Notes: a model not told the origin generated them from the letters alone. A stretch of DNA of 64,000 nucleotides from Candidatus Omnitrophota bacterium (GCA_041649115.1 JBAZNT010000007.1:16046-80045), one strand, 5' to 3'. Shown: positions 36,417-37,648, counted from the stretch's first letter. Made by a program: numbers and translations.

Positions 36417-36430
36417 TAAATTATCTTCTC

Positions 36431-36474
36431 CCCTTTCGGTTCGATTGCTATAAGCGGGTGAACGGAATCGAACC
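36431..36474 (-). repeat. duplicated 3' end of tRNA-Gly plus trailer (44 nt)
   Basis: This segment repeats the T-loop, acceptor 3' strand and 23-nt trailer found at 36558-36601, with about 2 differences. It ends 14 nt upstream of the thyA-like ATG. Confidence 0.85.
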
Positions 36475-36557
36475 TGTCGTTTTACTCCTTAAGAGGGGGC
36501 AAGCCCCCTCTTAATATTCTCCCCTAATACGCGGGGGAAATCTCTTTTCCCCCGCAC
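36475..36557 (-). other. hairpin element between the tRNA-Gly repeat copies
   Basis: It contains GGGGTGCGGGGGAAAAGAGATTTCCCCCGCG and the palindrome TTAAGAGGGGGC-TT-GCCCCCTCTTAA. The core is shared with the element after tRNA-Thr. Confidence 0.6.
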
Positions 36558-36579
36558 CCCCTTCGGTTCGATTACTATA

Positions 36580-36650
36580 AGCGGGTGAACGGAATCGAAC
36601 CGTCATATATAGCTTGGAAGGCTATTGTTCTGCCATTGAACTACACCCGC
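36580..36650 (-). tRNA. tRNA-Gly (TCC)
   Basis: The reverse complement is GCGGGTGTAGTTCAATGGCAGAACAATAGCCTTCCAAGCTATATATGACGGTTCGATTCCGTTCACCCGCT. Canonical cloverleaf. No encoded CCA. Confidence 0.9.
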
Positions 36651-36701
36651 AAGACTAACGCGTACCGACGAAATTTCGATTAGCGCCGCCTGCCGCATAA
36701 C

Positions 36702-36985
36702 TGGTGGACAGGAGAGGATTCGAACCTCTGAAGCACAAGTGCAGCAGATTTCAAGTGCCCTTAAGTTACCTCAAGGCTTGGACTATCTCATCACCATGGC
36801 TTCTAGCTTTAGGTGGTAGGCGCTTAGTCTCTGCACCTTCCCGTTTATATAGCGGGCTTGGCTCAGGATTGCCCTTGGGCATTTACGCCAAGGGGTTCCC
36901 TGAATTCACCTACTTTTTCATCCTGTCTTTCGACAGGATGCTGCTTTAAACAGTCTGCCCCCTTTGGCCGCTTGGGTACCTGTCC
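36702..36985 (-). tRNA. tRNA-Tyr (GTA) interrupted by a group I intron (exons 36950-36985 and 36702-36751)
   Basis: The joined exons give an 86-nt type-II tRNA: GGACAGGTACCCAAGCGGCCAAAGGGGGCAGACTGT + AAATCTGCTGCACTTGTGCTTCAGAGGTTCGAATCCTCTCCTGTCCACCA. CCA is encoded. Confidence 0.88.
36752..36949 (-). mobile_element. ORF-less group I self-splicing intron (tRNA-type, IC3-like)
   Basis: The last exon nt is U in a U-G wobble of P1 (CUGU/GCAG), and the intron ends in G. Pairings seen: P2 with GAAA loop, P3 GUAGGUG/CGCCUAC, P4 UCAGG/CCUGA, P5 CCCUUGG/CCAAGGG, P6 CCCG/CGGG, P7 GACUA/UAGUC, and P9 with GUAA loop. Confidence 0.85.
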
Positions 36986-37607
36986 ATATTGAGATTTTTG
37001 TTACGTAACCCTGAATCCAATTTTTAATTAATTTCAATAATTCCTTATCGTTGTACCTGACGTGAACCAATCCATACGGTAATATTCTATTATTTTTATT
37101 CGGAGTTCCCTCTCTTATATATGGCTTAGTAAATTGAGCAAGAGGAATGCCGGTAATCTTACGCCAATAGTTTTTTATCTCCTCTAAATCATTATACGAG
37201 TAAGCATAAATATAAAGACGCAGGCGTTCTTCTTTAATGCCGCAGATCCGCCTTAAGAACTCCAAGAATAATTTTACCATGCAAGGATTGCTGTTAACAA
37301 AATCTACGGCATTACCCTTAAGAGTTCCTTCCGCCCAATAAAGCATGATGCCGGCGGTCTTCAACTCTTCTTCGGCAACGGATAAATTCAACTTTGCATT
37401 AAAATGAGGCTTGGATTTATTCGATAAATATCCAGCTTCAGAATGATCGCGACGGTCAATACCATGTTGTTTCATAAAATCGTATAATGACCAAAAAGAG
37501 ATACCGATTTCACGGGCAACTTCTTCTATAGTATGTCTTTTGTCCCTATAGAGAAAGTTAATTCTGTCAAAATTCAACTTTTTTGGCTTTATTTGTATAG
37601 CTGTCAT
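36918..37607 (-). CDS. free-standing LAGLIDADG-like homing endonuclease with N-terminal HTH
   Basis: 229 aa. HTH segment TIEEVAREIGISFWSLYDFMKQHG. LAGLIDADG-like helix AGIMLYWAEGT, followed by a single endonuclease-fold-like region (GLVHVRYNDKELLKLI). The last 22 codons overlap the tRNA-Tyr 5' exon and intron. Confidence 0.55.
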   Translation of the reverse strand: MTAIQIKPKKLNFDRINFLYRDKRHTIEEVAREIGISFWSLYDFMKQHGIDRRDHSEAGYLSNKSKPHFNAKLNLSVAEEELKTAGIMLYWAEGTLKGNAVDFVNSNPCMVKLFLEFLRRICGIKEERLRLYIYAYSYNDLEEIKNYWRKITGIPLAQFTKPYIREGTPNKNNRILPYGLVHVRYNDKELLKLIKNWIQGYVTKISIWTGTQAAKGGRLFKAASCRKTG

Positions 37608-37616
37608 ATTTATCTT

Positions 37617-37648
37617 TTTTAAGGCCGGCGAGAGGAATCGAACCCCCG
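37617..37648 (-). repeat. duplicated 3' end of tRNA-Thr (T-arm + acceptor 3' strand + start of trailer)
   Basis: The 22-mer GGCGAGAGGAATCGAACCCCCG (plus strand) at 37627-37648 is identical to 37790-37811. Flanking TTAAG similarity is also present. It ends about 10-15 nt upstream of the endonuclease ATG. Confidence 0.8.

Follow-up and report, generated by a model that had tools for sequence, protein, structure and literature searches.

Orphan tRNA 3′ ends ahead of two protein-coding genes in a Candidatus Omnitrophota bacterium probably mark the downstream boundaries of a structured tRNA-trailer element

A 64,000-nucleotide (nt) stretch of DNA from a Candidatus Omnitrophota bacterium (GCA_041649115.1 JBAZNT010000007.1:16046-80045), here called the window and numbered from its first letter, carries on its minus strand two orphan copies of tRNA 3′ ends, one derived from tRNA-Thr and one from tRNA-Gly. 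With moderate confidence, we interpret these fragments as the downstream copies of direct repeats that bracket a tRNA-trailer RNA element, one whose gain and loss occur when its tRNA-derived repeats recombine. The upstream copy of each repeat would complete the working tRNA, and the downstream copy would stay where the tRNA formerly ended, which in this phylum would be a few nucleotides before the next start codon.

A preliminary description of positions 36417 to 37648, made from the sequence alone, had listed eight items along the minus strand, and we located all of them: nnr, tRNA-Thr, hairpins, the Thr fragment, an open reading frame (ORF) that we call ORF229, tRNA-Tyr, tRNA-Gly, further hairpins, the Gly fragment, and a thyA-like gene. 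The two tRNA genes concerned and the repeats that involve them are as follows.

37786-37858, minus strand: intact tRNA-Thr(UGU) (ARAGORN; Rfam tRNA model, 68.3 bits)
37782-37815, minus strand: Thr direct-repeat copy 1, the last 30 nt of tRNA-Thr plus 4 nt downstream
37619-37652, minus strand: orphan Thr 3′ fragment, direct-repeat copy 2 (repeat search, 88% over 34 nt)
36580-36650, minus strand: intact tRNA-Gly(UCC) (ARAGORN; Rfam tRNA model, 72.6 bits)
36557-36601, minus strand: Gly direct-repeat copy 1, from the T arm to the 3′ end of tRNA-Gly plus 24 nt downstream
36430-36474, minus strand: orphan Gly 3′ fragment, direct-repeat copy 2 (repeat search, 96% over 45 nt)

The orphan Thr fragment spans the variable loop, T arm, acceptor 3′ strand, and discriminator and extends 4 nt beyond. 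That the fragments sit shortly before the next protein starts, as first reported, was borne out: 11 nt separate the Thr repeat from the ATG of ORF229 at 37607, and the whole Gly repeat stops 13 nt short of the thyA-like ATG at 36416. The tRNA-derived portion of the Gly fragment (36453-36474) ends 36 nt before that ATG. It is followed by a second copy of a sequence antisense to the T arm (anti-T; 36438-36446) and then by GGGG, part of the thyA Shine-Dalgarno region.

The tRNA 3′ matches in the window are above chance. The last 24 nt of tRNA-Thr and of tRNA-Gly each recur downstream of their gene at 22 of 24 positions; for the other two tRNAs in the window the best downstream match is 11 to 14 of 24. 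Upstream of tRNAs generally, the best match is typically 11 to 16 of 24, reaching 19 of 24 solely where another tRNA gene sits. No ORF lies in the 82 nt and 129 nt between the direct repeats, neither ARAGORN nor the Rfam tRNA model makes a tRNA call at either fragment, and a promoter and terminator scan returned no promoter-like or terminator-like site at the fragments on the minus strand. In the Thr fragment the acceptor strand reads CGCCGGC, as in the tRNAs of relatives, whereas the resident tRNA-Thr has CGCCAGC (the comparison included L135; L-numbers denote comparison loci from relatives and metagenome contigs, with L206 being the Escherichia coli tyrT locus). The fragment has therefore not simply been homogenised with the adjacent resident tRNA.

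The DNA between the repeats proved to be related at the two junctions, with 81 of 99 aligned positions shared, and both window copies belong to one element family. There is no third copy elsewhere in the 64-kb window. The parts of the two copies are these.

37669-37774, minus strand: core of the Thr copy (model R1, 65.9 bits, E = 1e-16; alignment with L002 and L009)
37759-37766, minus strand: Thr anti-T, CCCGACCC (sequence comparison)
37731-37754, minus strand: hairpin 1 of the Thr copy
37716-37725, minus strand: joiner of the Thr copy, GGGGTGACAG
37701-37715, minus strand: hairpin 2 of the Thr copy
37675-37700, minus strand: hairpin 3 of the Thr copy
36485-36578, minus strand: core of the Gly copy (model R1, 26.2 bits, E = 3e-5)
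36565-36573, minus strand: Gly anti-T, AATCGAACC, inside the 24 nt downstream of tRNA-Gly and part of repeat copy 1
36529-36557, minus strand: hairpin 1 of the Gly copy
36489-36514, minus strand: hairpin 3 of the Gly copy, a perfect 12-bp (base pair) stem

The Thr anti-T, CCCGACCC, is the perfect complement of GGGTCGGG in tRNA-Thr (variable loop and T stem) and has one mismatch when paired with the fragment. The Gly copy lacks hairpin 2. It was recovered by nhmmer at an E value of 3e-13 with a four-sequence profile that included the Gly copy itself and at 0.0037 with an independent 78-sequence profile, and its single-sequence RNA fold has a z score of −3.9. The spacers of the window Thr copy, a Thr copy in L002, and a Gly copy in L009 align end to end, and the window Gly copy aligns with them at hairpins 1 and 3. 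The first three are about 80 to 84% identical over aligned positions; the Nnr protein that flanks the element is just 53% identical between the window and L002.

We scanned metagenome contigs with the core pattern GGGGTRACAG-N8-30-GCCAKAGGGG. It matched at least 120 contigs, some of them by chance, and 106 copies among the matches listed also fit a covariation model with flanking features that are absent from the pattern. Among the same matches, 48 of 111 untruncated instances lie 50 to 220 nt downstream of a same-strand tRNA, and the linked tRNAs cover 15 amino-acid identities (Lys, Thr, Met, Arg, Ser, Leu, Asn, Trp, Cys, Gly, Asp, Pro, Val, Gln, and Ala). Several instances where no tRNA was called still carry a clear antisense-T-loop sequence. 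Profile matches gave the same orientation, with a same-strand tRNA upstream in 49 of 108 and an opposite-strand tRNA alone in none. The nnr/tRNA-Thr site itself is occupied in five metagenome loci. In 38 of the 48 tRNA-linked copies among the matches listed, the tRNA's own 3′ part is repeated right after the element; the exact repeat cores measure 11 to 103 nt (at least 17 nt in 34 of these 38), and shuffled sequences reach at most 11 nt. The orphan fragments in the window are therefore the family's normal downstream boundary.

Not only the repeat but also the anti-T is matched to the local tRNA. It complements either the T arm or the variable loop plus T stem, and the longest Watson-Crick duplex that it can form with the local T arm averages 8.79 nt, compared with 5.84 ± 0.26 nt when linkers from other tRNA types are swapped in. 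The anti-T is able to pair with the true T arm of the tRNA or with the fragment, and in minimum free energy folds of several copies the helix between anti-T and fragment closes the element. The few differences between a fragment and its tRNA are located in the T loop; in the acceptor strand the two almost never differ, and the identity often stops exactly at the discriminator. An acceptor 5′ strand matched to the fragment is not enriched inside the element (5.66 versus 5.81 ± 0.15 in the control), so the fragment alone is not a tRNA-like minihelix.

Read along the tRNA strand, a unit consists of the tRNA (tRNA-X), a linker that is often TTAAAT-like, the anti-T, AAAGGGG with hairpin 1, and the joiner GGGGURACAG, followed by hairpin 2, whose length is very variable, CGCCA, and hairpin 3 (KAGGGG-N5-CCCCUW). 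Hairpin 3 is usually followed by GGAGCGA, a fourth hairpin, and GAGCGA, and then come the T arm and acceptor 3′ strand of tRNA-X. The whole element measures about 100 to 170 nt. Hairpin 2 is closed by tandem G·A or by Watson-Crick pairs, with two positions alternating between tandem G·A/A·G and Watson-Crick pairing.

RNAalifold run on a plain MAFFT alignment returned a poor consensus because hairpins 1 and 2 differ in length, and it was replaced by a hand-drawn structure and a model-based alignment. With 106 copies aligned to model R1, 85.5% of cells were paired, compared with 72.1% in shuffled controls and at most 54.3% with slid partners. The covariation score was 0.322; shuffled alignments gave 0.118 ± 0.005, with none of 500 as high, and slid partners at most 0.068. 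Changes on both sides were found in 24 of 27 pairs. The hairpin 2 stem averages 4.35 bp, compared with 1.51 ± 0.12 bp in chimeras that join 5′ and 3′ halves from different copies, and the triplets flanking hairpin 1 are fully complementary in 29% of copies versus 6.7% after shuffling. Hairpin 1 is rich in G·U pairs, which are A·C mismatches on the opposite strand. These G·U pairs form in the sense direction only, which, together with the strict co-orientation of unit and tRNA, suggests that the tRNA-sense strand is the one that folds, most simply as RNA.

The gene neighbourhood accounts for the position of the fragments relative to start codons. Four long Omnitrophota contigs share the order pterin-binding gene, DAC, pdxJ, acpS, nnr, tRNA-Thr, ORF229, tRNA-Tyr (with a group I intron), tRNA-Gly, thyA-like gene, PilZ, and gpsA; 80 further loci from species genomes bear out the tRNA context of ORF229, and the tRNA-Thr/ORF229 junction recurs in about 38 further Omnitrophota-type loci. 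In 30 of those 38, a genuine tRNA-Thr 3′ end lies 5 to 40 nt before the ATG of ORF229, so the link between fragment and start codon is incidental. A tRNA end just ahead of a start codon is the ancestral compact state, and the Thr fragment in the window occupies that place. A comparison of the nnr-thyA interval in relatives, which the preliminary description had suggested, shows genes that are conserved together and elements that vary: L002 has the Thr element and fragment alone, L009 has the Gly element and fragment alone, and L001 and L003 have neither. The two fragments in the window are thus independent of each other.

Copies are present or absent at orthologous sites across the family as well, and tandem units occur in L121, L151, and L153. 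Two arrays have spacers unrelated to those of the main family and units that nevertheless end in the last 17 to 19 nt of the tRNA: one with a 118-nt period after tRNA-Gly in an Omnitrophota locus (L028, 3467-3780) and one with a 174-nt period after tRNA-Tyr in Falkowbacteria (L081, 3063-3500). As in E. coli, the unit of the latter includes a sequence antisense to the T loop and T stem, GGGAAGGATTCGAA. Copies on one contig share idiosyncratic traits across different tRNAs (the Lys and Gly copies of L108, for example), and a Ser/Asn/Arg subfamily has a hairpin inserted in the T loop of the fragment. A high-GC class with the same core, about 230 to 330 nt long, is sharply bounded (CTAG|TGTGG...CACAC|TAG), with terminal hairpins on both sides; it was found in the metagenome loci L105, L109, L113, L115, L117, L125, L110, and L096 and looks, from its sequence, like an IS630-type miniature inverted-repeat transposable element (MITE) inserted at CTAG. 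One high-GC copy lies in front of a gene that, by its N-terminal sequence, is a putative spoVG.

How far the family reaches is indicated by L131, a tRNA-linked, high-GC locus whose AccC has its nearest named relatives in Planctomycetota (63 to 65% identity), a weak hint that the family may extend beyond Omnitrophota within the Planctomycetes-Verrucomicrobia-Chlamydiae (PVC) group. Rfam 15 returned no family for the element (E ≤ 1 on the window region; gathering threshold or E ≤ 5 on 28 loci), and literature searches for the motif and for tRNA-linked repeats found nothing on it.

Several individual loci depart from the common arrangement. In L005 (5896-6120) and L032 (3457-3630), an orphan Gly fragment has the typical Omnitrophota acceptor strand and the acceptor stem of the resident tRNA-Gly differs; the whole tRNA-Gly gene seems to have been replaced there, leaving the old 3′ end behind. 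The thyA gene of L005 is upstream, not downstream, of tRNA-Gly. In the same locus, tRNA-Pro (7589-7666) is followed by an 87-amino-acid GIY-YIG ORF (7730-7993) and then, at about 8042 and directly before a PilZ gene, by a copy of the tRNA-Pro 3′ end that matches at 18 of 24 positions, so that an insertion with a nuclease-like gene inside is bracketed by a tRNA 3′ repeat. In L014, an element copy (1410-1565, 33 bits) is found just upstream of tRNA-Thr rather than downstream, and tRNA-Thr itself is 834 nt from ORF229.

If the fragments do bound a trailer RNA, the element would be co-transcribed with its tRNA, ordinary tRNA 3′ processing would cut the tRNA away, and the anti-T would then pair with the fragment and close the trailer into a discrete, stable RNA, by analogy with the rtT RNA of E. 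coli. At the DNA level, the tRNA-derived repeats would permit clean deletion of the element, and homologous recombination could copy it into an empty gene for the same tRNA. Copying through tRNA homology would select for a fragment that matches the tRNA without a difference through to its final base.

A number of points weigh against this interpretation. Co-transcription, processing, and the helix between anti-T and fragment are predicted steps, and the model offers no account of how a copy becomes tailored to a new tRNA. The Thr copy in the window has a single-sequence fold z score of −1.42, no better than shuffles. The alignment behind the pair counts was fitted to the model and so favours the structure, and the "invariant" joiners are partly a matter of ascertainment, the copies having been found through the core pattern. 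Nothing within the element pairs with the acceptor strand of the fragment. The element is missing from the corresponding junctions of most relatives, so it is dispensable. Relatives of the core appear to be carried on an IS630-like MITE, which indicates mobility at the DNA level. Finally, the family is not linked to E. coli by sequence, and the resemblance to rtT may be convergent.

We also consider, more tentatively, a broader proposal: that the elements form a widespread and previously unrecognised class of tRNA-coupled structured RNAs, each unit tailored to its tRNA by an anti-T and a spare 3′ end, which either control or monitor the maturation of their own tRNA or spread selfishly, with E. 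coli rtT as a distant or convergent member. In the regulatory version, the anti-T would pair with the nascent tRNA or with the decoy fragment and thereby control or monitor tRNA maturation; were the RNA indeed to act on its own tRNA, this would be a new layer of tRNA regulation. In the selfish version, the element would spread between genomes by homologous recombination with conserved tRNA sequence as its homology arms, which would make it a transposase-free element that exploits tRNA conservation. Orphan tRNA 3′ ends are routinely taken for scars of prophages or islands, and this family is another common source of them.

Three other explanations, namely MITEs, punctuation by RNase Z or RNase P, and attachment-site (att) scars, can be set against these data, and none fits them as well as a trailer RNA does. 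We judge it rather unlikely that the units are MITE-like, non-autonomous DNA transposons mobilised in trans and targeting the tRNA T-arm region, with hairpins that serve as protein sites and RNA that is a by-product. The high-GC class with the same core, with its sharp boundaries, terminal hairpins, and CTAG/TA-type target like that of IS630, speaks for such an origin, as do the patchy distribution at orthologous sites, the lineage-specific traits shared by copies on one contig whatever their tRNA (L108 Lys and Gly again), and the existence of copies, the window Gly copy included, that have a hairpin at both ends and a repeated T arm...anti-T arrangement. However, tRNA-linked copies, including those in the window, have no terminal inverted repeats beyond the pair formed by the anti-T and the fragment's T arm (T′). 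There is no short target duplication of fixed length; the repeats are 17 to 103 nt long, and their end coincides with the 3′ end of the tRNA. The copies have only housekeeping neighbours, with no transposase or integrase recurring near them, many helices use G·U pairs that would be A·C mismatches on the other strand, the orientation relative to the tRNA is strict, and just 3 matches were found in 2.9 million viral contigs. The possibility that the fragments are instead processing signals was raised in the preliminary description and stands only in part; we regard as unlikely a tRNA-like signal at which RNase Z or RNase P would cut to set mRNA or trailer ends, with the tRNA 5′ acceptor strand or 5′ half as partner. 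What survives is that the element is co-oriented, covarying, and RNA-like, that the fragment is conserved exactly to the discriminator with few mismatches in the T loop, that one subfamily keeps the T′ stem despite a 14-nt hairpin inserted in its loop, and that no separate promoter signal precedes ORF229 or thyA; the analogous rtT unit of E. coli gives an RNA product, according to a passage in PMC3318445. What does not survive is the tie to start codons, since 30 of 38 relatives have a real tRNA end at the same ORF and units are also found between tRNAs or behind terminal ones. Without a matched acceptor 5′ strand (the 5.66 versus 5.81 comparison above) no minihelix would form in cis, and the positions mutated in the fragments are T-loop residues, C56 among them, on which tRNA enzymes depend.

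Scars left by integrase islands at tRNA 3′ ends, later nearly emptied to leave attL, attR, and a short remnant, would produce direct repeats from the T arm or T loop to the 3′ end, as is typical of tRNA-targeting integrases, and the GIY-YIG ORF of L005 between tRNA-Pro and its 18/24 3′ copy, together with orphan Gly fragments that differ from the resident tRNA in L005 and L032, would suit such a history. We nevertheless think this very improbable: the DNA between the repeats is one conserved, covarying family behind 15 amino-acid identities rather than random debris, the anti-T is matched to each tRNA, no integrase or cargo lies in or near the copies, and sizes are held tightly to 100 to 200 nt. 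Least credible of all, and close to negligible in our estimate, is the proposal in the preliminary description that ORF229, the intron-bearing tRNA-Tyr, and tRNA-Gly were inserted as a block through tRNA 3′ ends. The suggested check of composition did show ORF229 to be compositionally foreign (GC content 35.7% and GC content at third codon positions 36.7%, versus about 50% and 57% in its neighbours), and tRNA-Tyr alone encodes CCA. Such an insertion is contradicted by the gene order, which is the same in every Omnitrophota locus examined, and Thr-Tyr-Gly(-Thr) is a widely conserved bacterial tRNA cluster (thrU-tyrU-glyT-thrT in E. coli), which also weighs against a cassette. The fragments occur singly in relatives (Thr in L002, Gly in L009), each bounds its own element copy, and the Gly fragment is downstream of the intact tRNA-Gly, not where a block from Thr to Gly would leave its junction.

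The genes between the two elements are neighbours of the elements and not components of them.

36918-37607, minus strand: ORF229, a helix-turn-helix (HTH) domain followed by a domain of about 150 amino acids
36702-36985, minus strand: tRNA-Tyr(GUA), exons 36985-36950 and 36751-36702; the spliced exons fold as tRNA-Tyr
36752-36949, minus strand: group I intron of 198 nt between U35 and A36 (Rfam Intron_gpI, 93.6 bits; gathering threshold 50)

ORF229 reads into the 5′ exon and intron of tRNA-Tyr. It has more than 240 homologues at 55 to 65% identity, essentially all in Omnitrophota, and homologues in Patescibacteria (40 to 46% identity) adjoin a tRNA-Tyr that has no intron; across L001 to L085, in Omnitrophota and Patescibacteria, it always adjoins and reads into tRNA-Tyr, whether or not the intron is present. 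Sequence and profile searches of Pfam, NCBIfam, PHROGs, and the PDB did not confirm the endonuclease of the preliminary description; Pfam, NCBIfam, and PDB sequences gave no match outside the N-terminal HTH. An AlphaFold 2 model (predicted local distance difference test score, 82) gave Foldseek matches to intein endonucleases at noise level only, and motifs such as MLYWAEGT and VDFxNSN in the domain of about 150 amino acids are no more than LAGLIDADG-like. ORF229 is a candidate for either a free-standing homing endonuclease or an intron maturase.

The early identification of a tRNA-Tyr with an intron and an encoded CCA was correct, and tRNA-Tyr is the sole tRNA of the window cluster to encode CCA. 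Four Omnitrophota relatives (L001, L002, L003, and L005) share this intron, and a literature search found no paper on a tRNA-Tyr group I intron in Omnitrophota. At the other ends of the interval, the nnr ORF has no stop before tRNA-Thr; its frame enters the tRNA gene by 38 nt and stops at 37821 (37821-37863, minus strand), and nnr in L002 ends 2 nt ahead of the tRNA. The thyA-like protein (35664-36416, minus strand) matches Pfam Thymidylat_synt weakly (E = 2e-10), and is matched best by TIGR03283, a model for thymidylate synthase of the methanogen type, at 101 bits and below the cutoff of 174.55.

Among known systems, several candidates were considered and dropped: T-box, tmRNA, and a YrlA-like tRNA mimic (no Rfam support and no acceptor helix), a TnpB/IscB omega-RNA or IS110 bridge RNA (no nuclease or recombinase gene and no Rfam match), and a G-quadruplex (the G runs are paired within covarying helices). 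The Clostridiales-2 motif (RF02937) gives sub-threshold scores of 19 to 25 bits (gathering threshold 58.6) in five independent copies, namely the window Gly copy (19.3 bits), two in L087, and one each in L095 and L121; hairpin 1, the G-rich joiner, and hairpin 2 align in the same order. We know of no tRNA link for that motif. Integrases that target tRNA genes classically leave direct repeats that begin in the T arm or T loop and reach the tRNA 3′ end, and islands bounded by attL and attR share with the elements both this span and an upstream copy that restores the tRNA. They differ in that the element family has 80 to 170 nt of structured non-coding DNA between the repeats and no integrase. 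Other tRNA-like signals include mitochondrial tRNA punctuation, the t-elements of plant mitochondria, and spacer RNAs such as 3′ETS-leuZ. Here too, tRNA-derived or tRNA-adjacent sequence in a co-transcript could set RNA ends or give a stable spacer RNA; unlike punctuation signals and t-elements, the fragments have no acceptor 5′ strand and are missing from the same junctions in most relatives. With IS630/Tc1-type MITEs, the high-GC relatives of the core share discrete ends, terminal hairpins, and CTAG flanks, whereas the copies in the window and other tRNA-linked copies are bounded by tRNA-derived repeats and have no such ends.

The closest parallel is with the 178-bp tyrT/rtT repeats of E. 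coli (RF00391), and the view that the arrangement is unusual for a bacterial chromosome was overstated, the E. coli tyrT locus having the same design. These repeats have been a puzzle since the late 1970s. In E. coli K-12, the tyrT-tyrV spacer and each of three rtT repeats has a 22-nt antisense T arm (19/22, four copies), and about 100 nt beyond it stands an orphan copy of the last 19 nt of tRNA-Tyr, a 19-mer that occurs six times; GA-rich AGCGA/GAGCGA motifs surround a hairpin in each unit. As in our family, the repeats immediately follow a tRNA gene and share its strand, and the units end in the 3′ segment of the upstream tRNA (19 nt there, 34 and 45 nt in the window). They share the antisense T arm, a criterion for rtT-type units that we derived from the E. 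coli sequence in the present analysis, and its central TCG-to-GAG mismatch recurs in Omnitrophota tRNA-Lys copies. The GA-rich motifs around a hairpin and the tandem arrays are also common to both.

The topology is different, in that the E. coli anti-T lies beside the 5′ half of T′ with the rest of the unit inside the T′ loop, whereas the Omnitrophota anti-T and T′ bracket the core. Units of rtT encode the small peptide Tpr, which Omnitrophota units do not, and they are confined to one tRNA locus in enterics, whereas the present family follows 15 amino-acid identities in uncultured phyla. The Rfam RtT model has no match in the window at E ≤ 1 and none in eight loci at E ≤ 5, and our own nhmmer profile and model R1 have none at the E. 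coli tyrT locus. Because there is no detectable homology and the order of parts differs, we class the elements as working like rtT-type trailer units and not as members of RF00391. One tyrT repeat unit encodes rttR, an RNA product, as stated in a passage of PMC3318445 that cites Bosl & Kersten 1991, and the function of rttR is still described as unknown (10.1101/2024.07.17.603846). The family described here is apparently widespread and undescribed, and it apparently generalises the tyrT/rtT oddity of E. coli: with the same design in Omnitrophota, and probably in other bacteria of the PVC group, what was a curiosity of one locus becomes a class that can be studied comparatively.

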